Below are positions 4,923 to 59,255 of a stretch of 64,000 bases of DNA, one piece after another. This DNA comes from Octopus vulgaris (Eukaryota): positions 21,018,001-21,082,000 of the forward strand of contig OX597837.1 of assembly GCA_951406725.2 (NCBI GenBank), given 5' to 3'. The first letter of the stretch is position 1, and the number at the start of each line of letters is the position of its first letter. A program made the position numbers and the translations under genes. The notes beneath the pieces were generated by a model. The model was not told the origin of the DNA. It did not search any database and was given only the letters and a program-made list of their open reading frames with translations.

Positions 4923-6201
4923 TTGGGTTGTCCGGAAGTTCGTGCCGATTTTTAAAGGAATGAAAAAGGTCAATAAATTCTTGCCATTACATTTTTAATC
5001 AACCAAATATGAACAATTTTGTTGCACAATGCATCTCCATCTTCCCTTTTACTTGAAAATACCCTCTTCCCAGAATTGACGTGGTTTCATGGCAAAGAAT
5101 TCATCAAGGTATCTTTTTACGTCATCCAAGGAATTGAAATTTTTACCATTAAGACTATTTTGCAGAGACCTGAATAAGTGGAAATCCGAAGGAGCAATAT
5201 CTGGTAAATATGGAGGGTGGGGTAACACATCCCCGCCGAGCTGCAGCAACTTTTGTCTGGTTCCCAAAAAAACGCGCGGTCTTGCATCATCATGTTGGAA
5301 AACAACACCCTTCCTGTTGGCCAGTTCTCGACGTTTCACTTGAATTGCTGCTTTTAACTCGTCCAGTTGTGTGCAGTATTTCTCAGAATTAATTTTCTGG
5401 TTACTTGGGAGAAGCTCATAGTACAGAATTCCTTTCCAATCCCACCAGACAGAAAGCAAGACTTTTTTAGGGTGAAGACCCGCTTTTGGGGTGGCTAAGG
5501 GTGGTTAATGTCGCTTACTCCAGGATCGCTTTCTCTGAACATTTCGATAGATAATCCATTTCTCATCACCTGTCACAATTTGCTTTAAAAAAGGCGCGTT
5601 TTCATTCCGTTTATAAAGCGAATCACAGATGGAAATGCGATCCAAAAGGTTCTTCTCACCCAACTCATGTGGTACCCAAACATCGTAGCGATTTGTGTAA
5701 CCAAGCTTTACCAGGTGCTCATGAACGATGGATTTTGATAGGTTGAGGCTTTCTACCAATTCTCGGGTTGTGCAATGTGGGTTATTCTCAATTAATGACT
5801 TGATTTGGTCATCATCTGCAGTGGATGGTCTGCTTGATCGCTCTTTATCAATAAGGCTACAATCTCCAGCACGGAACCTTGCGAACCACTTCCGTACAGT
5901 TCTTTTGGATAAAGAATCATCACTGTAAACTGCGCATATTCCTTTGGTTGCTTGTGAGGCATTTTTCCTTTTAGAGAAAAAGAAAAGCATGAAGTGCCGA
6001 AAATGAACTTTATCTTCCATTTTAAAGGGTTACAGAATTGACACAGGTTATAGGAACATAAACCTTCTTCCACGAAAAGATAGCTTAAATTGTGCTCTAA
6101 ATGGAGGTGTAGTCAAATCCTATTTTATGGACTCAACCATGTTCTAAAATAAATCGAAAGGTGAGCTACTATAAATCGGCACGAACTTTCCGGACAACCC
6201 A

Positions 6202-14000: not shown

Positions 14001-14351
14001 GCTGGGGTGACCATGTATCTCCTCTGCAATAAGATACCTATTTCTGTCCTCTATTCATACTTTAACTTCTAACCTGGCAGAAAGCCGCTTCCCTCAATAC
14101 TACCGCCTACTGAGTTTTGGTGACTTCACTGATGCTGGTGCCACGTAAAAAGCACTCAGTACAACTCTGTAAAGTGGTTGACGTTAGGATGGGCATCCAG
14201 CTGTAGAAATTATGGCAAAGTGAAGTGGAGCAACGTGAAATAAAGTGTCTTGCTCAAGAACACAACACACAACCTGGTCTGGGAATGACTGTGAGTCCAA
14301 CGCTCTAAGCACTGGCTCATTTCCAATTCTCCTATTGACTCTGCAGCAACC

Positions 14352-15074
14352 GAACTCGGGTTTAGGGAAGGTTTTCGGTGCTTCATTTTGGTCCGACCAC
14401 TGCGAAGAACGTTTTTTATTATTGTACAGAATCCACTTTTCATCGCAAGTTACAATATGGTCATAAAATGGATCGGTCTGGTTACGGAGAAGAAGCAACG
14501 AGAAAATTTTGTATCTGCGCATTTACTGATTTTCATTCAAATCATGTGGTACCCATTAATCGAGCTATTTTGATCTTCCGATCGCATGCAAGTGGTTGGT
14601 GGCTAGTTTTCTGGCTAACTTGTGGGTATTTTGCCAGTTATCGAGTGGTTTTACATAGATCTTTCTCAATGACGGTCTTTAATTGACTGTCATCGATGAC
14701 AGATGGGCGCCCACTACACTCACGATCTTCAAGGCCCTGGTCTCCACTGCGAAATCGTTTAAACTATTTTCGAGCTGACCACTCACTGGTCATTTCCTCG
14801 CTAAACGTTTCGTTGATATCGCCAGCAATTTCAGCTGCTTTACGTCCTTTTTTGAAGCTGAACAGGAAAATTGCTCGAATATCGCGCCATTTCAGATGAT
14901 TATAACAACGGTGAGAAAAATATTAATGTTAATTTATTGATGCATTTGGGCAGGTCTATGCCTGTGTTATCAGACAAATGCAAAAACAAATTGTTTAAAA
15001 AATTCAAAACTCTGCAAAAATCCGGTACAAATTCTTCATAGTTCAAAACGTTGCTTACTTTTTGCTGAACCTGA
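14352..15074 (-). mobile_element. degenerate mariner 5' part (cecropia/Hsmar1-like)
   Basis: TIR-like tcaggttcagcaaaaagtaagc next to TA; IRAIFLFSFKKGRKAAE, WVPH and IVTCDEKWILYNN remnants. Confidence 0.8.
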
Positions 15075-16553: not shown

Positions 16554-16659
16554 ACATTTAAATAATGAGGGAGATAAATTGAATATTAATTTAATTAATA
16601 TCAATTTAAAACCAGTAGCCTAGCATATAAAAAATATGAAAAATCAGAAAAAATTTCAA

Positions 16660-17177
16660 TACATGTGTATATTTAGGGCTAAAAAACCACTAGGTGGATA
16701 GCCATATGCTAGAAGAAGATCACATACAATCTAACTACAAAGAAAGAATGTTCTCCAGAGAAAATTTAGCGAACACCAGAACATAGGCTGGCAAGACAGA
16801 TGAAAATTATATAAAAATCAAGAATTAATCGTATACCGGTTTCTTCTTATTACCGAATAAATTACTTACGTAATCCTTCGTCCGTAGATTCATCAGTACG
16901 ATCGTTCCACATTCAATATAATTTGCAAAACTAAACACTAGTTTTCTATATAAAACCGGACACGTGCTTAGTTTTACCGATTACATTGGGATTATTTTCA
17001 AATGTCTGAGCTCTGGCGCGCTAAATTCCGGAAGCAGTTCTGCAGCAGATAATTTACTGCAGTTAATGTTCGCTGAATTTTCTCTGGAGAACATTCTTTC
17101 TTTGTAGTTAGATCGTATGTGATCTTCTTCTAGCATATGGCTATCCACCTAGTGGTTTTTTAGCCCTAAATATACAC

Positions 17178-17182
<5 letters not shown>
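16660..17182. repeat. inverted repeat, 116-bp arms, enclosing a hammerhead motif
   Basis: 16660-16775 versus 17067-17182 with about 2 mismatches. Confidence 0.93.
16828..16902 (-). ncRNA. type I hammerhead ribozyme motif
   Basis: minus strand aucgua-CUGAUGA-(stem II)-GAAAC-cg-GUA-uacgau; 6-bp stem I, intact core. Confidence 0.65.
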
Positions 17183-17501
<319 letters not shown>

Positions 17502-18540: not shown

Positions 18541-19095
18541 TTGGGTTGTCCGGAAAGTTCGTGCCGATTTATAGCAGCTTACCTTTCGACTTATTTTAGA
18601 ACATGGTTGAGTCCATAAAATAGGATTTGACTACACCTCCATTTAGAGCACAGTTTATGCTATCTTTTCGTCGAAGAAGGTTTATGTTCCTATAACCTGT
18701 GTTAATTCTGTTACCCTTTAAAATGGAAGATAAGAAAGTTCATTTTCGGCACTTGATGCTTTGGGAACTAGACAAAAATTGCTGCAGCTCGGCTTGGATC
18801 TGTTATCCCACCCTCCATATTCACCAGATATTGCTCCTTCGGATTTCCACTTATTCAGGTCTCTGCAGAATAGTCTTAATGGTAAAAATTTGAATTCCTT
18901 GGATGACGTAAAAAGATACCTTGATGAATTCTTTGCCATGAAACCACCTCAATTATGGGAAGAGGGTATTTTCAAGATGGAGACGCATTGTGCAGGAAAA
19001 TGGTTCATATTTGGTTGATTAAAAATGTAATGGCAAGTATTTATTGACCATTTTTATTCTTTTAAAAATCGGCACGAACTTTCCGGACAACCCAA
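18541..19095 (+). mobile_element. internally deleted copy of the same mariner family (555 bp)
   Basis: same TIRs, TA duplications at 18539-40 and 19096-97; MEDKKVHFRHLML joined directly to GTRQKLLQLG...YSPDIAPSDFHLF. Confidence 0.95.
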
Positions 19096-44559: not shown

Positions 44560-44680
44560 CATTGCTAATGTACTCAGAAAGATAGACAACAAAAAACGGC
44601 GTCACAAGATCATTAATTCCTTGTACATAACCACTGGCTGGATGGCGGATAGCCCATATATACAGGATTCTTTCAAATAT
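44560..44680 (-). CDS. TBC1D22: TBC1D22 glutamine-finger exon (IFERILYIWAIRHPASGYVQGINDLVTPFFVVYLSEYISN)
   Basis: ttttag acceptor, gtatgt donor, 121 nt; YxQ motif (GYVQGIND). Confidence 0.97.
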
Positions 44681-48094: not shown

Positions 48095-49745
48095 ATGGTT
48101 ACAAATTTTGGCACAAGGCCAGCAATTTTCAGGGAGTGGGTAAGTTGATTACATCAACCCCAGTGTTCAACTGGTACTTATTTTACCGACCTCAAAAGGA
48201 TGAAAGGTAAAGTTGATCATGGCCACATTTGAACTCAGAATGTTCAGGGTCAGAAGAAATGCAGCTAAGAATTTTTTTTCCCCGGTATGCTAACGATTCT
48301 GCCAGCTCGTTGCCTTAATAATAATAAGAATAATCCTTTCTGCTAAAGGCATAAGGCTTGAAATTTTGGAGGAGGGGACTAGTCGATTACATTGACCCTC
48401 ACTGGTGCCTAATTTATCGACCCTGAAAGGATGAAAGGCAAAGTCGACCTAGTAATTTGAACTCAGAACATGAAGACAGACAAAATGCTGCTAAGCATGG
48501 TAGCATTTCTGCCAGCTCACTGCCAGAAGAATAATAATACCTGAAACAGAGCCAGGGCATGTTTCTGATTGGTAAATCATCTTTCCAGGATACAATATTG
48601 GTTTCATCACTGGTGAAAGAGGTGGAGTCAGGCAGAGAGATGCAATCTGGTACTTAAGATTAGCCACTAGGACTTAGCTCTCGTGTTTTACACTGATTAA
48701 AGGCTTATGAGTTGTACTGTATTAATGGAGATCCTAAAATCTCTCGGAGCCAATCCTTTCAGCTGTGAGGAAAGGTGATACAATTCACCATTGTAGTCAG
48801 AGGATGCAAGGTATGATTGGCAACCATTTTCTCATTGGCCACAACTGTCACTGTCACCACCACCACCACCACCACCACAGGATCAGGAAAGAAGCACTGA
48901 AAAGCTACACCCTTCTATCTAACCTATAAGATGGACATCTCTATCCCACCACTGTCCTCCAATTAAGGTAAAAGGAAATAGCGACCCACTTTTAATTAAC
49001 ACATGAAAATAGGGAAAATAAAACAAATCAGCCTAATTATCATACTTTATGAGACATGGATTTTCTTCTCTTTTATTTTTTGCTAACATATTTGATGACA
49101 ATAAAAAAAAAGTTTACCTCAAACCAAAATATATAAATATGAATAGTAATAGGATTTCAAAGCTTCCTTTGTGTAACACAATACAATGAAGAATTCTTTA
49201 ACTTACCTGCCAGAAGTTATTGTGAAAAAAGATGATTAAACAAACAAAACTGGTTGACATATTAGATAAATATTTTGGCACAAAGCCAGTAATTTCAAGG
49301 GCAGATGTGGAAGTCAATTACATCAAACTTGCCAGTGCTCAATTGGTGCTTATTTTATCAAACCCACAAGGATGAAAGGCAAAGTCGACCTCAGTGCAAT
49401 TTGAACTCAGGACAAAATGCTGCTAAGCATTTTGTCCAGCATGCTAATGATTCTGCCAGCTCACTGCCTTAGATTGGATAAATATATTGAATGATCTTAT
49501 GAAATAGGTTAAAAGCCAAATAACATTGGTTTCAAATTTTGGTAAAAGGTCAGCAATTCCAGGGAAGGGATTAAGTTGATTACATCAACCCCAGTGCTTG
49601 ACTGGTAGTTGTTTAATTAAACTTGCAAGGATGAAAGGCAAAGTTGACTTTGGTGGAATTTGAACTCAAAATGTAAAGACAGACAAAATGCTGCTAAGCA
49701 TTTTGCCTGGTGTTTTAATGATTCTGCCAGCTCACCACCTTAGAT
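48095..49745 (-). mobile_element. cluster of older MetaSINE-type copies
   Basis: four reverse copies with ggcacaaggcc...ggatgaaaggcaaagt...tctgccagctc. Confidence 0.75.
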
Positions 49746-51901
49746 TAGATAAATATGTTGATAGAATGAATGAAATAGATTAGATAAAAGCCAAGTAATA
49801 TTGAGACAGAAGGAGTCAAGGAAAGAGAGAGAAAAGAAATAGTGCAAAGAGTATAAAAAACAAAACTAATTGTAACTCTGACCCTGATGCCATTCTAAAG
49901 GAATCGATTTTGTAATCTAAGCCAATAAGAGGTTCATATATTATCTCTATTCAAAAAAGGGCAACTTTTCAAAATGTTAGACTCCTTCACTACTCACTAG
50001 AAGTCAACTTGTTGAATTCTTCTACAAACTCCCCCATCACTCTTAAACAGCAAACATCATCGATTGTTGCTTCATTACAGAACACTGGATATCATCAACT
50101 GATGTGTATTTGCAGAATGCAGGAGTTTCAAATGAATTTTATGCTCAATGCCAGATGCAAAGGAAAGTGAATATTTAACAGCACTTTTCAATGAGATTGT
50201 CAATTTTATTGTGCAAGAGACTAAAAATTTATCATCATCATTTATCATCCGTTTTCCATGCTGACATAGACTGGGGACTGGCAAGCCAGAAGGCTGCACC
50301 AGGCTCCAATCTGATCTGGTAAGGTTTCTGCAGCTGGATGCCCTTCCTAACGCCAACCACTCCAAGAGTGTAGTGGGTGCTTTTTACATGCCACCAGTAC
50401 AGGGGCCAGTCAGGTGGCACTGGCATTAACCACATTCAAGTGGTGCTTTTTTATGTGCCACTGGCACAGGAGCCAGTCGGGGAGGGACTGGCATCGACCA
50501 CATTTGGATGGTGCTTTTTACGTGCCACCAGCAGATTTTGGGGGTTTTTTTGCTTGCTTAGGGTTTTTTTTTGTTTGCCTACTTACACATTCATGCATTC
50601 CTTTTCTTCTGTTTAAAGGCTAAATACTGTCAGAAACAGAATAAAACATGGCAGTTGAACCAGTAAAGGAGCCTCTGCAGGGCCATTCAACAAGCTAGGA
50701 ATAGCAACTAAGTTTCTCTCAACTAGAACAATAGCTTTAAAAAGGACACATTGGACAATCTAATCATAGGAATAATAGCTGGAACAATAAGGATGGTCAT
50801 GGCTGGAATGCCTTCAAATGTTAATCAAAATAATTTCATTTCAGCCTAATTTAATTACTGGAAATAACTCTCAAAAATTCATCATCAATACAATTTACAT
50901 CAGTTTTTGCAGGCTTCAACTGGCTTTTGCAGAGGTTTGCTCTTACAGAACAAACATTCACTTTGTAGGCACTGAAGTCACTTTTGCCAGTGTTTCTAGC
51001 TAGACTGCTTTGACTGAGGACAAAACCAGAAACTCTTCCTATTATCCATGCCCAAGAAATATTTTTACCAGACTTTGTGGCCTGTAGTCATATAATCAAA
51101 AGACTGGCCTTCCTTTAGAGCCTTTTATAGACTCAGTTGCTTGTTCTTAACATTAAGCATTCAACCATGAAGCGAGAGTGACTCCCTATATTTAAACTAG
51201 GTTAGTCAAAGGATAAGTAATTTGTCAAGAGCCACAAGGTACTGCAAAATGAGATTTAACCATTTAACATTTAAACCAGCCATATCCAGTCCAAATCTTA
51301 TGGTCAAACCAACCAGATCTGGCCTCACACTTACTCTACAGTCACATCATCAAAATCTCAAAGCTAAGAAATAATGCAGGATTAATTCAAAACCATGTGA
51401 ATAAACAAACATTACATTTGACAGGGTAATCTGAATGATTAAACTTATGCTGATTATTATGGGGTTTTTTTTATTATAAAACTGTCTTTAAAAGAGATGA
51501 CGCAATCAGAAAATAAAGAACATTGATTTAAAAAAAAAATAAACAGCTAAATTTCTTTGATTATTTAAGATGTTAAGAGAAATAAAGAGATAATGAAAGG
51601 TTGGCTTTCCTTAACCTTTCCATCAGTTCTAGGGATAAATAATGATATATATTGGCAGCATGACAGAGTTGCTGGTTTTTCTTCTAAACAACTGTCTCCA
51701 TTGAATGAGTATATTAAAGAACAACCAAAAAAGAAACAGGTGGAAAGAAAGGGTGAGATAGACAGACAGAAACAGGTGAAAATTTTCTGGTCCGTTTGCA
51801 GAGCTGGATGTGAAGTCAAGTGAAAGAAACAGGTAAGAAAATATATTTAAAAAAAGATGAATAAGAGATGGCAGCTGTAAAGTTGACTAACTGATACTCA
51901 C

Positions 51902-51967
51902 TTCCTGCACGGCATTCTGCTGGAACAAGTGTGCAACAGAAGTCATTCGAGGGATATCTTTAAGAAT
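51902..51967 (-). CDS. TBC1D22: TBC1D22 arginine-finger exon, copy B (ILKDIPRMTSVAHLFQQNAVQE), putative mutually exclusive alternative
   Basis: tttttgcag acceptor, gtgagt donor, 66 nt, phase 0/0, no stop; colinear with copy A (I..DIPRM.....LFQ...VQE). Confidence 0.85.
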
Positions 51968-54005
51968 CTGCAAAAACAGGGAGCAGGGTGTTTTTGAAGA
52001 AGACAGTAATCTACTACTAACCATCAAAGAGCTACGGTGTTACACTCGTTGAGTAGGAGTGAAGTCAACATGGAAACGACAAACCAGACTAAAACTTACA
52101 AAATTAGAAAATATTTTGTTATTATTTATTTGGGAAAGAAAGGTTTGTTTGCTTGCTGTTTTTTTTTTAAATAATTTTTTTTAAGAATTTCTTTTTTTAC
52201 GAACATTTTAAAAAACAATTCATTCCTCATTTGTATATCAACATAGGTTAGATAAATCTAAAAATCCACACATCTGCACAAATTACAGTGGAAGCCTGCT
52301 CTTTGAAACGAGTAGCCACAGATAAAATTATAGAGCATGACATGGAATGATGTACAAGCTGAAGAAGTATCAGCGTATTGATTTATAACAATGTGTTTTT
52401 AAAAGTTTACATCAACAAATTTAAGGACCAATTATTAGTCTTGACGAATGATTAATTAATCATAAGCATATATAAATCACCAGTGCTAAACAGCTACATT
52501 CAATTTCCAGTATTATGCTAGCTGTAACAACATACATAAACTGTAAAATATTTACAGCTCTGTTAATCAATACCAAAAGATGGAAAGGTGTTACTAACAA
52601 TATCAGGGGTAACAGATAATTTTTTTAAAAACCAAAATCTGATTCTAAGTTTAGACAAAGCCCGTCTGGTTTCTCGAAAATGTTAACTTTTCTCATATGG
52701 CCTGAAAAAAAGACAAACACATGTTAGTTATTAAGAGAGAAGATAAAACAAAGCCCCAGCAATGAAAAACAAAAATTAAAACAACAGAAAAAGCCAACAA
52801 AATACACCCAAATATAAATGTTAAAATGTCAAAAGAAATTGCACAGCCACCTTGATTCAAATGTAGCATCTGAACTAGCAAGGGCAGGGTGCTAAGACAT
52901 CCATAGTGCAGCATGCTGGGTAGGGATCAAGGGGTACAGCAGAAAAATATTTAGCTAGTTAGACAGCAAAATGCAGCAACTTGTGTCTTTCCCTTCAACC
53001 AAATTCTACCAAAGTAACATCTTAACTGGGTTTTCATTTATACACAGTTTCATATCAACTTGAAAAAAAAAAATACACATTAAAATTAAAAGCTAAAATC
53101 AAACAGGAATTTAGTTGATCAAAATTAATGTTTTTATTATTTTACTTAAAATATTTTTGTAAGTGAATTTCCAGTGAATAGCTGTCACAACATCATCGTT
53201 TAACATCCATTTTCCATGCTGGCATGTGTTGGACAGTTTGACAGAAGCTGGCAGGCTAGAGCTGCACCAGGTCCCAGTTGTCCATTTTGGCATGGTTTCT
53301 ACAGCTGGATGGCCCTTCCTAACATCAATCACTTTACAGAGTGTGTTGGGTGCTTTATATGGCCCCAGCATGGGTGCTTTTTATGTGATGCCAGCATGTA
53401 ACACTTTAGTTAAAAATAAAAATGTTCTAAAACTATTTTCAGTATAGCTAATATGGTACAAAATGACTAAGAGATATATTAAGATATATTTTTTTTAAAA
53501 AGTGAGAAGGGCAACGTTCTTCCCTGTAGCTAAATTACTCCAGGAATTCTTTCTGAGTATATTCATAAATATCTACACCTATATTCACCTCAACATCATT
53601 CCATGAGATTAATTCCGAAATTGATTCAATATAGAAATAACAAACTTTTTTTAAAATTCTGTTGACTAGCTTTCCTCGATTTCAGCACAATGTATTTCTG
53701 TAGTGGGACGATTTAAAAGTCCGTTATCAGCATATTGGCATGGAACTAATTTTCTTTTGCCCTTGTTTATAAGTTGTTTATAATTTTAAACTTTAAAGGT
53801 ATTCTAATACGCTGCCACTTTTTGATGAAATTTTTTTCTGTAAAAAAACTTCATCCTATATTAGTAGTATATATAATACCGGAGTAAAGACATAAATGTG
53901 AAACAAGGTGGAAAAAAGGTGGAATTTTAACAAAACTGTCCGACGAATGGGAACGTGAAACTCCGAGTAACAGGTTTTGTTGAATTTCTGCTGCTTTGAA
54001 ATAAA

Positions 54006-54059
<54 letters not shown>

Positions 54060-54471
54060 AAGAGAGGAAGAAAAAAGTATGATAAACACACATGATGCAG
54101 TTTACCATACTTTTTCTAATATTTCCTCTGTATATCATAACTAATAATACCACTAAGTTCAGTAGCAACCATGTCGCATTTCTGGCAGTTGACTGGGGGC
54201 TGATAGTCTATGTGGAACCGTAAATACACATGCAGCTGTTGTACGTCTAACCTTGTGTGTGTGTAGCATAACAAAAAGCCCTGAAACTTCAATATTTCAG
54301 TAACAAAGAAACTGGAAATTCAAGCTTGCTGTGTAAATATTTAGCTGCTTTTTTATTAGACTTTTACTAAACTATTGAACTTGCTTGTCTACAGACCTGG
54401 TGAAAATATGATTGAAAGGCCCCAAATTGCTGCATTTTGTTGAACTGGCTCTTTGTTGGGGGCATACTTAC

Positions 54472-54537
54472 TTCCTGAACTACCTTCAGTTGAAACAGAG
54501 GGACTAAAGGGTTCATTCGGGGAATGTCTATGTGAAT
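54472..54537 (-). CDS. TBC1D22: TBC1D22 arginine-finger exon, copy A (IHIDIPRMNPLVPLFQLKVVQE)
   Basis: ttttag acceptor, gtaagt donor, 66 nt, phase 0/0; IxxDxxR motif in the canonical IHIDIPR form. Confidence 0.95.
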
Positions 54538-54699
54538 CTAAAATCAGGAACATTGAAGAGAAAGAAAACAAAACAAAAACAAAATAAAGACTTTACTTCC
54601 AAAGATGCAGCACATCAAAAATGGTGCAAATATAGACAGATGTAAAAGTATTTTAAATTTCAACATAAAATAAAACTTACATACTTAACATATACAAGC

Positions 54700-54979: not shown

Positions 54980-56566
54980 TTATTTCATTGACACCAAAAG
55001 GATGAAACGCAGATTCAACCTTGGTTGATTTGAATCTAGAACATGGTTGAAATGCCGCTAAGCATTTTTGCCCAGCATGCAAATAATTCTACTAGCATAC
55101 TGCCTTAATAATAATAATAATCTTTTCTACTAAAGATACAAGGCCTGAATTTTGGGGTGAGGGGACTAGTCGATTACATCAACCCCAGTGCATAACTGGT
55201 ACTTATTTCATCGACCCCAAAAGGAAGAAAGGCAAATTTGACCTCAGCGGAATTTGAACTAACATAGCAATGGACGAAATATCGCTAAGCATTTTGCCCA
55301 GCCTGCTAACAATTCTGCCAGCTCACAACCTTAATAATAATAATTCTTTCTATTATAGACACAAGGCCCGAAATTTTGTGGGAAGAAGCTAGTTTATTTC
55401 AATGGACTCAATGCTCAACAGGTACTTATTCTATCAACCTCAAAAGGATGAAAATTAAAGTCAATCTCAGAGGAATTTGAACTCAGAATGTAAAGAGTCA
55501 AGAGAAATGCTACAAAGCATTTGGTCTGGTGTGAGCATGATTCTGCCAGCTCACTGTTCCTAATTCAGGTACAAGGTCTACAATTTTGGAAGGGAAGGAT
55601 TCTGTCAGCTCACCGCCTCAGTAGTAATAATCCTTTCTACTAAAAGCACAAGGCCTGATAGTTAAAGGGAAGGGACACTACACCAACCCTGAAATGATGA
55701 AAGGCAAAGCAGACTTTGGTGGAATTTGGACTAAGAACATAGACACAGAAGAAATGCCTCTAAAGCTTTATAATAATATGTTTCCTCTTGGTGTAAATGA
55801 TGGGCTATAGCAAACACTTTGCTCAATACCACAGATTTATTTGTCAGCTGTTTCACCTTAAATAGTTGAGCATGTTTCTTAGTGGCTAACAAAATGTGCA
55901 TCTCTGATCACAAACAGGTGGGGTCATTATAGCCATGTGTTGATAGGCATTGAGGTTTGAATAATTCACCTCTAGAAACATGGGTGTATCATTCATCACC
56001 TTAAACAACTCTTATTCAGGGACCTTTTGAATGGGATAGGCTACTCAACCTGAAGAAAATTCGAACTGGGCCCCACCTGCAAAGCCATGCACTGTTTATC
56101 TCAATATGTGATCACTATGTTGCATGCATGTATGGCTGTGATGCATGTACTTGATGTATCCTTAATCAGACAGGTAGTCATGATGGGTATATTAGGCTTC
56201 ATATGTTCGTATCTCAGTGTCACTTTGATGGAATGCACTGCTCTCTCACCCAATAACCCTTTCTACCAATTGGTGGAATTTGAACTTAAAACATAAGGGG
56301 AGACGAAAAACTGTTCAGCATTTTGCCTTCAGTGCTACCAATTCTGCCAACTTGCTGCCTTAATAATAATCCTTTCTACTATAGGCACAAGACCTGAAAT
56401 TTAGTGGGAGGGAACTAGTTGATTACATCGACCCCAGTATTTCACTGGTACTTAATTTATCAACCCCAAAAGACAAAGCTGACCTTGGTGCAATTTGAAC
56501 ATAAGGGCAGATGAAATGCCACTAAGCATTTTGCCTTCTGTGCTAAGGATTCTGCCAGCTTGCTGC

Positions 56567-56600
<34 letters not shown>

Positions 56601-58050
56601 GGGAATGCATACAATGAGCTTCTCTGACCCAGGTGTATGGAAAACACTCAGCGAGAAAATCAAGAAAAGTTTAAGAAAGAAGAAAAATAAAGAAAATAAT
56701 AATAATAATAATAATGATAATAATAATAATAATGATAATAATAATAATAATAATAAACAACAGCAAAAATAATAATGGAAATAATGCTAAAAACATCATA
56801 GTGACAACAATTAAAAAAACAAGACTCATTGAAAGCAAATACAAACAGCTACAACATCCACAACAATCTTGTAAAGCAGTGTAATTAACAATATCAATTA
56901 ATTAAAATATTTCTCCAAATAAAACTGACATTTACACATTGTCATTATACTATTTCACAACTAGAATACTGTAAATACTAGTACAGAATTCCATACTAAT
57001 AGCATAGTAAATTTTGGTGATAACTAAAAGACAGTGGTATCCTAAGTAAGCTAGGAGAAACACCAGATTTCTATAAAAAAAAATTCTGGAGTTCTGCAAG
57101 ACAAAATGTCTTTTCATCATCATCATCATCGTTTAACATCCGTTCTCCATGCTAGCATGGGTTGGACGGTTCGACTGGGGATCTGGGAAGCCAGGAGGCT
57201 GCACCAGGCTCCGGTCTTATCTGGCAATGTTTCTACAGCTGGATGCCATTCCTAACGCCAACCACTCCGTGAGTGTAGTAGGTGCTTTTTACGTGCCACC
57301 TGCACTGGTGCCAGGCGAGGCTGGCATCAGCCATGGTCGGATTGGTGCATTTTACGTGCCACCTGCACGGAAGCCAGTCGAGGCGGCACTGGCTTCGGCC
57401 ACGATTCGGATGCAAGACAAAAGTGTCTTTTATTAAAATTTAATCACTATTTTCAAAATAAGTAATAATGGTTTTAAATTCTGGCACAAGGCCAGCAATG
57501 TTGGGGGTGGGGTTAAGTCAATTACATCAACCCCAGCGTTCATCTGATAGTTATTTTCTCAACCTCAAAAGGATAAATGGCAAAGTTGATATTGGTGAAA
57601 TTTGCTCAAAATAATAATCCTTTCTGCTATAGGCACAAGGCCTGAAATTTGTGGGGAGGGGGACTAACTGATTACATTGATCCCTGTGTTTCACTGGTAC
57701 TTTTTTTATTGACCTCAAAAGGATGAAAGACAAAGTTGACCCCAGCAGAATTTGAACTCAGAACGTAAGGATAGACAAAATGTTAAACATTTTGCTCAGC
57801 ATGCTAATGATTCTGCCAACTTGCTGCCTTAATAATAATCCTTTCTACTATAGGCACAATGCCTGAAATTTGGGGGAGGGGACTAGTGGATTACTTGAAA
57901 ACCAGTATTTCACTGGTACTTAATTTATCAACCCTGAAAGGATGAAAGGCAAAGTCAACCTCAGTGGAATTTGAACTCAAAATGTAAAGTCATGAAATAC
58001 TGCTAAACTTTCTGTCTGGTATACTAACAATTCTGCCAGCTACCCACTTT
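54980..58050 (-). mobile_element. dense array of older MetaSINE-type copies separated by (AAT)n, with other repeats interleaved
   Basis: many reverse copies starting cctttctactataggcacaaggcctgaaattt. Confidence 0.75.
57115..57412 (-). mobile_element. RTE-tail repeat with internal acgtgccacc subrepeats
   Basis: (CAT)n followed by gtttaacatccgttctccatgctagcatgggttggacgg. Confidence 0.75.
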
Positions 58051-58486
58051 AATAATAATAATGACATACATACATACATATACATATAAATTCTATATCT
58101 GAAACAGTTTTGTTGCATTTAATGTCTTACCAAAATTATGGTGGGAAGCAGTCTATAAAATTTATGGTGTGGGTTCTGCAATTTCTGGAAAATCATGTAA
58201 AATTTTCCTCAATGAAATAACTCAGTTAACCATTGTTCTATTACTCTCTATCCATCTTCACCCACTGCTCTTGAGAGGGTAGAGTCTTCAGGCACTTCCT
58301 CCTTAAGATCCTATCAGGAGTAACCACCATTACACTCTCTGGCTGGAATCCCAAAGATGACCAACTGTGACTATGGACGTTGACCAGCCATTTCAATCTT
58401 GGTCTACCCTCAGGTCTCTTGCTGCTTAGCTAAGTTTGAAGAATCCATTTTGGCAATTCTTTCTTGTGACATTCTAATCACATATC

Positions 58487-58965
58487 TTATTTCTTTATTG
58501 TCCACAAGGGGCCACACACAGAGGGGACAAACAAGAACAGACAAATGGATTAAGTCGATTATATTGCCCCCAGTGTGTAACTGGTACTTATTTAAAGGTG
58601 GTGAGCTGGCAGAACCATTAGCACACCGGGCAAAATGCTTAGCGGTTTTTCGTCTGCCGTTTCATTGTGAGTTCAAATTCCGCTGAGGTCGACTTTGCTT
58701 TTCATCCTTTCGGGGTTGATAAATTAAGCACCAGTTACGCACTGGGGTCGATGTAATCGACTTAATACCTATATCTGTCCTTGTTTGTCTCCTCTATGTT
58801 TAGCCCCTTATGGGTAATAAAGAAATAGGTACTTATTTAATCGACCCCGAAAGGATGAAAGGCAAAGTCAACCTCAGCGGAATTTGAACTCAAAACATAG
58901 CGGCAGACAAAATACTGCTAAGCATTTCGCCCGGTGTGTTAAAGTTTCTGCCAGCTCGCCACCTT
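58487..58965. mobile_element. nested MetaSINE-type copies in opposite orientation
   Basis: plus copy 58596-58827 inside a minus copy; TSD ggtacttatttaa at 58583-58595 and 58828-58840. Confidence 0.88.
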
Positions 58966-59126: not shown

Positions 59127-59255
59127 CTGTCGAAATGTATCTTGATGTTCAACTTGATGTCGTGTCCCATAATACTGTTCAACAAAACTGAAATATTCCT
59201 TCCGCTTTCGTTCTAAAGTGGGTTGCCTCCGATCACAGTCTACAGGAAGATAACC
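59127..59255 (-). CDS. TBC1D22: TBC1D22 exon (GYLPVDCDRRQPTLERKRKEYFSFVEQYYGTRHQVEHQDTFRQ)
   Basis: ttcag acceptor, gtcagt donor, 129 nt, phase 0/0; GYLP...RKR.EY..F..QYY. Confidence 0.95.

Follow-up and report, generated by a model that had tools for sequence, protein, structure and literature searches.

The window analysed here, a stretch of 64,000 nucleotides of the Octopus vulgaris genome, harbors on its minus strand a gene which was identified by exon matches as the octopus TBC1D22 gene, encoding a RabGAP. Its full protein matches the structures of human TBC1D22A and TBC1D22B and of yeast Gyp1 (PDB 2qfz, 6d0s, 1fkm, 2g77). Between two constitutive exons, this gene contains two exons, A and B, which are tandem homologues of equal length (66 nt), lie in phase 0, possess AG/GT sites and have DIPRM and FQ..VQE in common. 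Both align to the IHIDIPR segment of the TBC1D22A/TBC1D22B/Gyp1 family and carry the sequence IxxDxxR, which we take to be the arginine-finger motif of TBC domains. The octopus gene belongs to the same family as TBC1D22A/B and yeast Gyp1, from which the molluscs differ by a second exon of the ILKDIPRM type. Exons A and B are separated by an intron of 2504 nt (54471-51968), and it is this intron that contains the long-range duplex which is the main subject of our analysis (Table 1).

Table 1. Features of the TBC1D22 locus, given in window positions and listed in the direction of transcription.
Feature	Position	Strand	Basis
Constitutive exon upstream of the pair (GYLPVDCDRR...HQDTFRQ)	59130..59255	-	100% identity to O. 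sinensis TBC1D22B
Exon A, 66 nt, IHIDIPRMNPLVPLFQLKVVQE, family-typical arginine-finger motif IxxDxxR	54472..54537	-	AG/GT sites; spliced RNA contigs
Arm 1 of the long-range duplex, holds A54440 opposite C	54397..54450	-	Pairing, energy, fold; single copy
Local hairpin in the loop, upper stem of 17-21 bp plus 7 bp, beside a TA microsatellite	54063..54129	-	Shuffles, global fold
Arm 2 of the long-range duplex, holds A52956 (UAG) opposite C54447	52953..53012	-	Pairing, energy, fold; single copy
Distal single-copy segment which the stem would bring to the donor of exon A	52738..52952	-	Single-copy search, motifs, fold
Acceptor-like site (UAACUAAC, pyrimidine run, AG at 52703-52702)	52702..52733	-	Sequence
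Exon B, 66 nt, ILKDIPRMTSVAHLFQQNAVQE, alternative arginine-finger exon	51902..51967	-	RNA contigs; annotated isoforms
Constitutive exon downstream of the pair (IFERILYIWAIRHPASGYVQGINDL), RabGAP-TBC domain	44560..44680	-	Pfam PF00566, E 2e-9; loose ends of A and B contigs

The use of the two exons was followed in RNA contigs of four runs (X9, X12, X18 and X20) from four studies; the RNA type is presumed, the spliced contigs showing mRNA. The 3′ end of the upstream constitutive exon is the loose end that was found joined to exon A as well as to exon B. Splicing from the upstream exon via A to the downstream exon was seen in three of the four runs (X9, X20 and X18), the respective path via B in one (X20), together with an upstream-B join in X9, while X12 yielded only unspliced pieces at the A/B cluster. 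A joint between A and B is listed in none of the four runs, with contigs dropping rare forms. In all three runs with spliced contigs exon A was the commoner one (A:B 35.5:21.8, 47.4:20.7 and 116.7:none), contig depth being a poor measure of such ratios. Isoforms containing either only A or only B are annotated for O. sinensis, O. bimaculoides, O. vulgaris, cuttlefish, oysters and mussels, and B-type TBC1D22 proteins also occur in gastropods. A and B are a mutually exclusive exon pair, which is kept across three mollusc classes (gastropods, bivalves and cephalopods). On the other hand, annotated models exist in which A and B are joined (P0006, P0009, P0016 and P0161), and others skip both exons. 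Exclusivity may be leaky, or these models may be artefacts. A search of the literature, judged by titles and the beginnings of abstracts and with most subscription papers outside its reach, gave no account of mutually exclusive splicing of TBC1D22; an account of a second exon among exon isoforms of TBC1D22A was absent from the matches listed, and no paper on TBC1D22B splice variants was found.

An alternative arginine-finger exon is present in many TBC1D22 lineages. It has the form ILKDIPRM and the downstream position in molluscs, IEKDINRM and the upstream position in Owenia, and reads IQKDLCRM in Lineus and ICIDVPRM in lampreys. Fish TBC1D22A has it as well, with two IHIDIPR segments in 63 of the 137 proteins of one protein listing, and the listed members from chiton, crab, scorpion and starfish have a single form only. 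Comparison of these sequences suggests that the same catalytic exon of TBC1D22 may have been duplicated repeatedly, or else very long ago. We found no paper on alternative copies of this exon across lineages. The copies in molluscs, an annelid, a nemertean, lampreys and fish TBC1D22A may outweigh the stem described below in importance.

Simple causes of mutually exclusive splicing are decay of the double product after a frame shift and steric hindrance, as stated in PMC5740500. Since exons A and B both comprise 66 nt and lie 2504 nt apart, neither of these causes can enforce their exclusivity and, thus, active control is needed. The initial annotation had described a duplex of 28 positions within the A-B intron (54450-54423 and 52983-52953), whose sequences and coordinates proved to be exact. 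Twenty-five positions are Watson-Crick pairs and one is a U-G pair (54426:52980); the remaining two are A.C mismatches, C54447:A52956, with the A in a UAG, and A54440:C52966, and three nucleotides bulge out (52961-52963). The first arm begins 21 nt after the donor of exon A, in agreement with the roughly 20 nt given before. However, the duplex does not end with the 28-mer, as 54422-54397 pairs with 52985-53012 by an 11-bp helix (54419-54409:52991-53001) and two shorter helices. In its entirety (54450-54397:53012-52953) it includes approximately 55 bases, about twice the noted length, encloses a loop of 1384 nt and reaches -53.8 kcal/mol, compared to -29.1 kcal/mol for the 28-mer. On the transcribed strand, the extended stem contains five G-U pairs along with two A.C mismatches, and it is stronger there than on the other strand (-48.4 kcal/mol), whereas the 28-mer alone is stronger on the non-transcribed strand (-33.8 kcal/mol).

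As a complementarity, the duplex is real. Paired with the shuffled rest of the intron, arm 1 gave no duplex as good in 150 trials (mean -32.4, sd 2.7; the arm was chosen post hoc). With a distance of 100 nt or more required between the arms, the best gapped duplex in the entire intron was equalled by one of 1000 dinucleotide shuffles. Five of 300 shuffles equalled the ungapped core alone. No better non-repeat duplex exists in the 4-kb cluster region (19,503 window pairs), and comparison with 100 repeat-masked 2.5-kb segment-strands from the window revealed a single duplex with a higher score, formed by a young inverted repeat of 117 bp. The suspicion that the arms might belong to a dispersed repeat could be dismissed, each arm matching only itself in the 2.8-Gb genome by a search to which a caveat for common words applies. 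The core 17-mer occurs five times in the genome (four to nine occurrences are expected), twice in the arms and three times without flanking similarity. Parts of the loop are filled by repeats, for which the DNA contig depth rises up to 3.5 million, compared to 44-82 near arm 2. Searches of Rfam gave no match up to an E value of 1, a metagenome scan for the locus in relatives revealed nothing above 67% identity and contributed no sequence to the analysis, and a search for read-through peptides returned exon matches only. Holes in the cover at 52876-52979 are also present in a DNA run and carry no meaning. A DNA run of organism B contains five differences at 50900-51284; none is listed near arm 2, over most of which this run has a hole, and it therefore carries no weight here.

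The arms might nevertheless be what is left of the termini of an ancient inverted duplication or transposon near the donor, and may still pair but have no effect on splicing. We regard such a neutral origin as rather unlikely, though it has several points in its favor. Inverted repeats of the element type do exist in the window (117 bp, 98% alike, 16659-16775 and 17067-17183), the loop itself contains a strong local hairpin, the stem excludes no exon and its strand bias is mixed. Moreover, the finding was picked from more than 1000 genome windows, so that a 1-in-1000 result is to be expected somewhere. By contrast, signs of terminal inverted repeats of a transposon were not detected: neither the arms nor their inner flanks have a further copy in the genome, and no target-site duplication was found at the three end positions tested. 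A very old element could have lost both its copies and the target-site duplication, but a relic would also have to lie, by coincidence, only 21 nt from the regulated donor of an ancient exon pair.

The reading which we tentatively prefer, giving it a little less than an even chance, is that the arms form an RNA bridge, which would loop out 1.4 kb of the intron, place the segment 52952-52700 beside the donor of exon A and bias the choice between A and B. It is favored by a complementarity beyond chance, by the single-copy state of both arms, by the position of one of them 21 nt from the donor of an anciently kept pair whose exons are used in an either-or fashion, and by the higher stability of the extended stem on the transcribed strand. 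The structure obtained in silico is a stable long-range stem within one intron, one arm of which is close to a regulated site. Bridges with the same layout are described for ENAH, KIF21A and SF1 in PMC10790352, and conserved complementary regions tend toward intron interiors near splice sites (bioRxiv 2020.05.05.076927). Formation of the stem in vivo is inferred, and so is an action of the distal segment on the ratio of A to B. Arms 1 and 2 would pair as soon as arm 2 has been transcribed, whereby the distal segment would be brought to the donor of exon A. There, its YGCY, ACUAAC and U-rich motifs may bind splicing factors, or else the segment may cover the donor by base pairing. Exon A might be dampened after arm 2 has been made, and exon B be let in. 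The direction of this effect is weak; we lean to a dampening of exon A because the helix covering its donor was the lowest in all six folding settings. However, a stable stem blocking exon A sits badly with the observation that A was the commoner exon in all three spliced runs. In addition, as the stem shortens the distance between the A donor and the B acceptor from 2504 to about 1000 nt, it does not explain exclusivity alone. Further points against the bridge are the preference of the 28-mer alone for the non-transcribed strand, the annotated A+B models, the donor masking at chance level and the post hoc tally of YGCY motifs described below, as well as the fact that octopus introns hold inverted repeats which arose by chance or from elements, such as the 117-bp pair at 16659-17183 and the hairpin in the same loop. 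The proposal of the initial annotation that the stem is the scaffold of an exon switch is hypothetical. It is supported in so far as the exon pair is truly mutually exclusive, the arms are not dispersed repeats and a role in splicing is the most likely reading, but not in the likeness to Dscam and 14-3-3zeta on which it drew (see below). The stem cannot be the ancestral mechanism of the switch unless its arms are conserved.

Folding of 2 kb of the transcript gave pair probabilities of 0.8-1.0 for the core (54439-54398), which was also kept in a fold including exon B. The outer helix (54450-54443:52953-52960), which contains the UAG with the A.C mismatch, reached a probability of 0.12 or less in the global fold. 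Instead, 54475-54445, including the donor of exon A, is predicted to pair with 52797-52738 (element D) rather than with the tail of arm 2, while in transcripts ending before 52797 the outer UAG helix forms. In six settings of parameters and temperature, the donor-covering state of the unedited sequence was ahead by 1.4-6.3 kcal/mol. Masking of the donor by element D did not exceed chance, as 26 of 300 shuffles in one test and 17 of 100 in another reached its energy. When the U-rich segment was shuffled, 69 of 135 sequences masked five of the six donor bases equally, and eight of 135 formed as many pairs. Hence, these shuffles make donor masking a lead rather than evidence. The 155 nt from 52952 to 52798 contain five YGCY motifs, compared to about 1.6 expected from a background of 10 per kb, a count made post hoc. 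The segment 52952-52700 has, in addition, one GCAUG, one ACUAAC and the acceptor-like site, but no UGCAUG; the sole UGCAUG of the A-B intron (54234) is located inside the loop. Joining of the acceptor-like site to exon A would lead to an in-frame stop two codons later. An RNA contig of X20 ends exactly at 52702, and a contig of X12 reads through. From its sequence, this site is possibly a decoy or poison acceptor.

The hairpin in the loop had a z value of -5.7 and was equalled by none of 200 shuffles, the region having been chosen post hoc; its probability in the global fold was 0.84. With about 67 nt, -29.6 kcal/mol for a region of 101 nt and no Rfam match, it loosely resembles a pre-miRNA in shape.

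A different use of arm 2 is conceivable if it served as a middle element pairing with arm 1 in one state and with exon B, over its 3′ half and donor, in the other, so that one exon at a time would be hidden, and ATE1 employs such an element (PMC7797038). The core of arm 2 can indeed pair with exon B: for 51930-51904, -20.6 kcal/mol were calculated, which none of 200 exon shuffles attained, and positions 51922-51912 are able to pair with the arm 2 core. However, in wider windows nine and 12 of 200 shuffles were as good. Moreover, the pairing with exon B is 15-30 kcal/mol weaker than that between the arms, would involve a segment transcribed later and did not appear when the whole region was folded, and the codons involved (QQNA) read QQTD or QQTG in decapodiform-type proteins. 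We therefore consider a switch of this type very unlikely. Upstream of exon A, positions 54620-54600 in the region of the A acceptor seemed to pair with arm 1, but were rejected as a chance match, since 43 and 29 of 200 shuffles were as good.

The A.C mismatches raise the question of RNA editing. UAG is the preferred ADAR context, and ADAR activity depends on temperature in cephalopods. An A opposite a C favors editing (PMC9479739). A duplex of at least 20 bp with an A opposite a C is predicted here, though the helix with A52956 is predicted to be disfavored once 52797-52738 has been transcribed. The two sites, 54440 and 52956, are each covered by one contig, in which they were unedited. The contig over arm 1 stems from X12 (54399-54635, depth 5) and that over arm 2 from X10 (52861-53066, depth 4.1); neither differs from the genome, and contigs drop rare variants. 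A 256-nt contig of X20 aligns to 52702-52955, its last two letters being clipped from 52956 on. It must therefore differ at 52956, the letter itself being hidden. Two contigs of X12 leave a hole of one base at A54398, which lies in a CAG context in the inner stem. The clip and the hole hint at editing, with which they are compatible, but an error or a polymorphism fits too. It is thus conceivable, but unlikely, that the stem forms and is edited like many cephalopod duplexes while proteins elsewhere set the exon choice. About 50 bp with A.C mismatches suit ADAR, and the clip at 52956 and the hole at A54398 would accord with it. On the other hand, there are the contigs of X10 and X12 that span the arms without any difference, and besides the hidden letter of the X20 clip, a different contig of X10 likewise lost one letter by clipping, at an unrelated position. 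In addition, comparable stems of ATE1 proved to be unedited (PMC7797038).

Within the bridge reading, of which it is a subset, editing might also gate the switch. In this model the core stem would be fixed, while the outer end would flip between the tail of arm 2 and the donor-covering element. Deamination of A52956 would close the A.C mismatch and tip the flip, and ADAR would thereby set the ratio of A to B. In silico, a G at 52956 put the donor-covering state behind by 2.8-3.5 kcal/mol in all six settings, G overstating the effect of inosine. We regard this model as a long shot.

At 52776, which is unpaired in the model, contigs of X12 and X20 carry a T>C difference (A>G on the gene strand) at full share, which is either a SNP or an edit. 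SINE-like copies of opposite orientation in the intron before exon A (58458-58938) can pair with many copies at 55039-58053 and 48129-49759 with up to -104 kcal/mol. These copies lie on both sides of the A/B cluster and are likelier ADAR targets than the stem. Pairs spanning both exons could favor skipping of both, a form that is annotated in O. vulgaris (P0011). Elsewhere in the window, the two 117-bp repeats, 98% alike, are the terminal inverted repeats of a MITE-like element of 525 nt (16659-17183), of which the window contains no second copy. Reading frames at 5052-6029 on the minus strand and fragments near 14187-14522 and 18734-19015 are broken by stops and, judged by their motifs, presumably represent mariner-like transposases.

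Structure-guided mutually exclusive splicing has been described in arthropods and vertebrates. If confirmed, the octopus stem would extend it to molluscs, for which no such case was found in the literature, most subscription papers lying outside the search. In the exon pair concerned, it is the arginine-finger segment of a Golgi RabGAP that is exchanged, and the pair has been preserved in gastropods, bivalves and cephalopods. The activity of ADAR is high in the nerve of cephalopods. Tuning of the stem by editing, if it took place, would directly connect the extensive editing of coleoids to an exon choice, at a single base.

Among known systems, FGFR2 with its exons IIIb and IIIc likewise has a stem between mutually exclusive exons which reportedly works by approximating intronic control elements. 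That stem is reportedly shorter, spans about 0.7 kb and activates the upstream exon. FGFR2 transcripts including both exons are, in addition, eliminated by decay, a route that is not open to two exons of 66 nt, and there is no sequence relation between the stems. The likeness to Dscam and 14-3-3zeta that had been suggested for the octopus stem did not hold, because the stem is located entirely within the A-B intron, without an exon in its loop or a docking partner outside. As in Dscam exon 6, 14-3-3zeta and srp, the cluster consists of duplicated exons used in a mutually exclusive manner and contains a long-range intronic duplex. In those systems, however, the pairings join different introns and loop out exons (PMC6071210 and PMC4691838), whereas the octopus stem is confined to a single intron. 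In six tests of the arms against flanking introns, 13, 19, 7, 5, 22 and 3 of 25 shuffles were as good. A docker-selector arrangement as in Dscam and 14-3-3zeta was thus rejected, both arms being inside the intron 54471-51968 and a docking site outside of it missing. Bidirectional pairing of the srp type was rejected as well (13/25 and 19/25 for arm 1 with the intron after B, 7/25 and 5/25 for arm 2 with the intron before A). ATE1 with exons 7a and 7b also has a two-exon cluster in which alternative pairings (R1R3 versus R3R4) hide splice sites. According to PMC7797038, its element R3 is contested by R1 and R4, both of which overlap splice sites, whereas the octopus arm 2 and the B acceptor are 985 nt apart and the rival partner of arm 2 pairs weakly. 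In the ENAH, KIF21A (RBFOX sites) and SF1 bridges (PMC10790352), long-range pairing within an intron likewise places a distant element beside an alternative splice site, and no exon is looped out. Those bridges are conserved and tested, while the octopus stem is a prediction, the sole UGCAUG of its intron lies inside the loop and its target is a mutually exclusive pair. Judged by its modelled structure, the stem in octopus TBC1D22 is a plausible new candidate of a known kind of structure.
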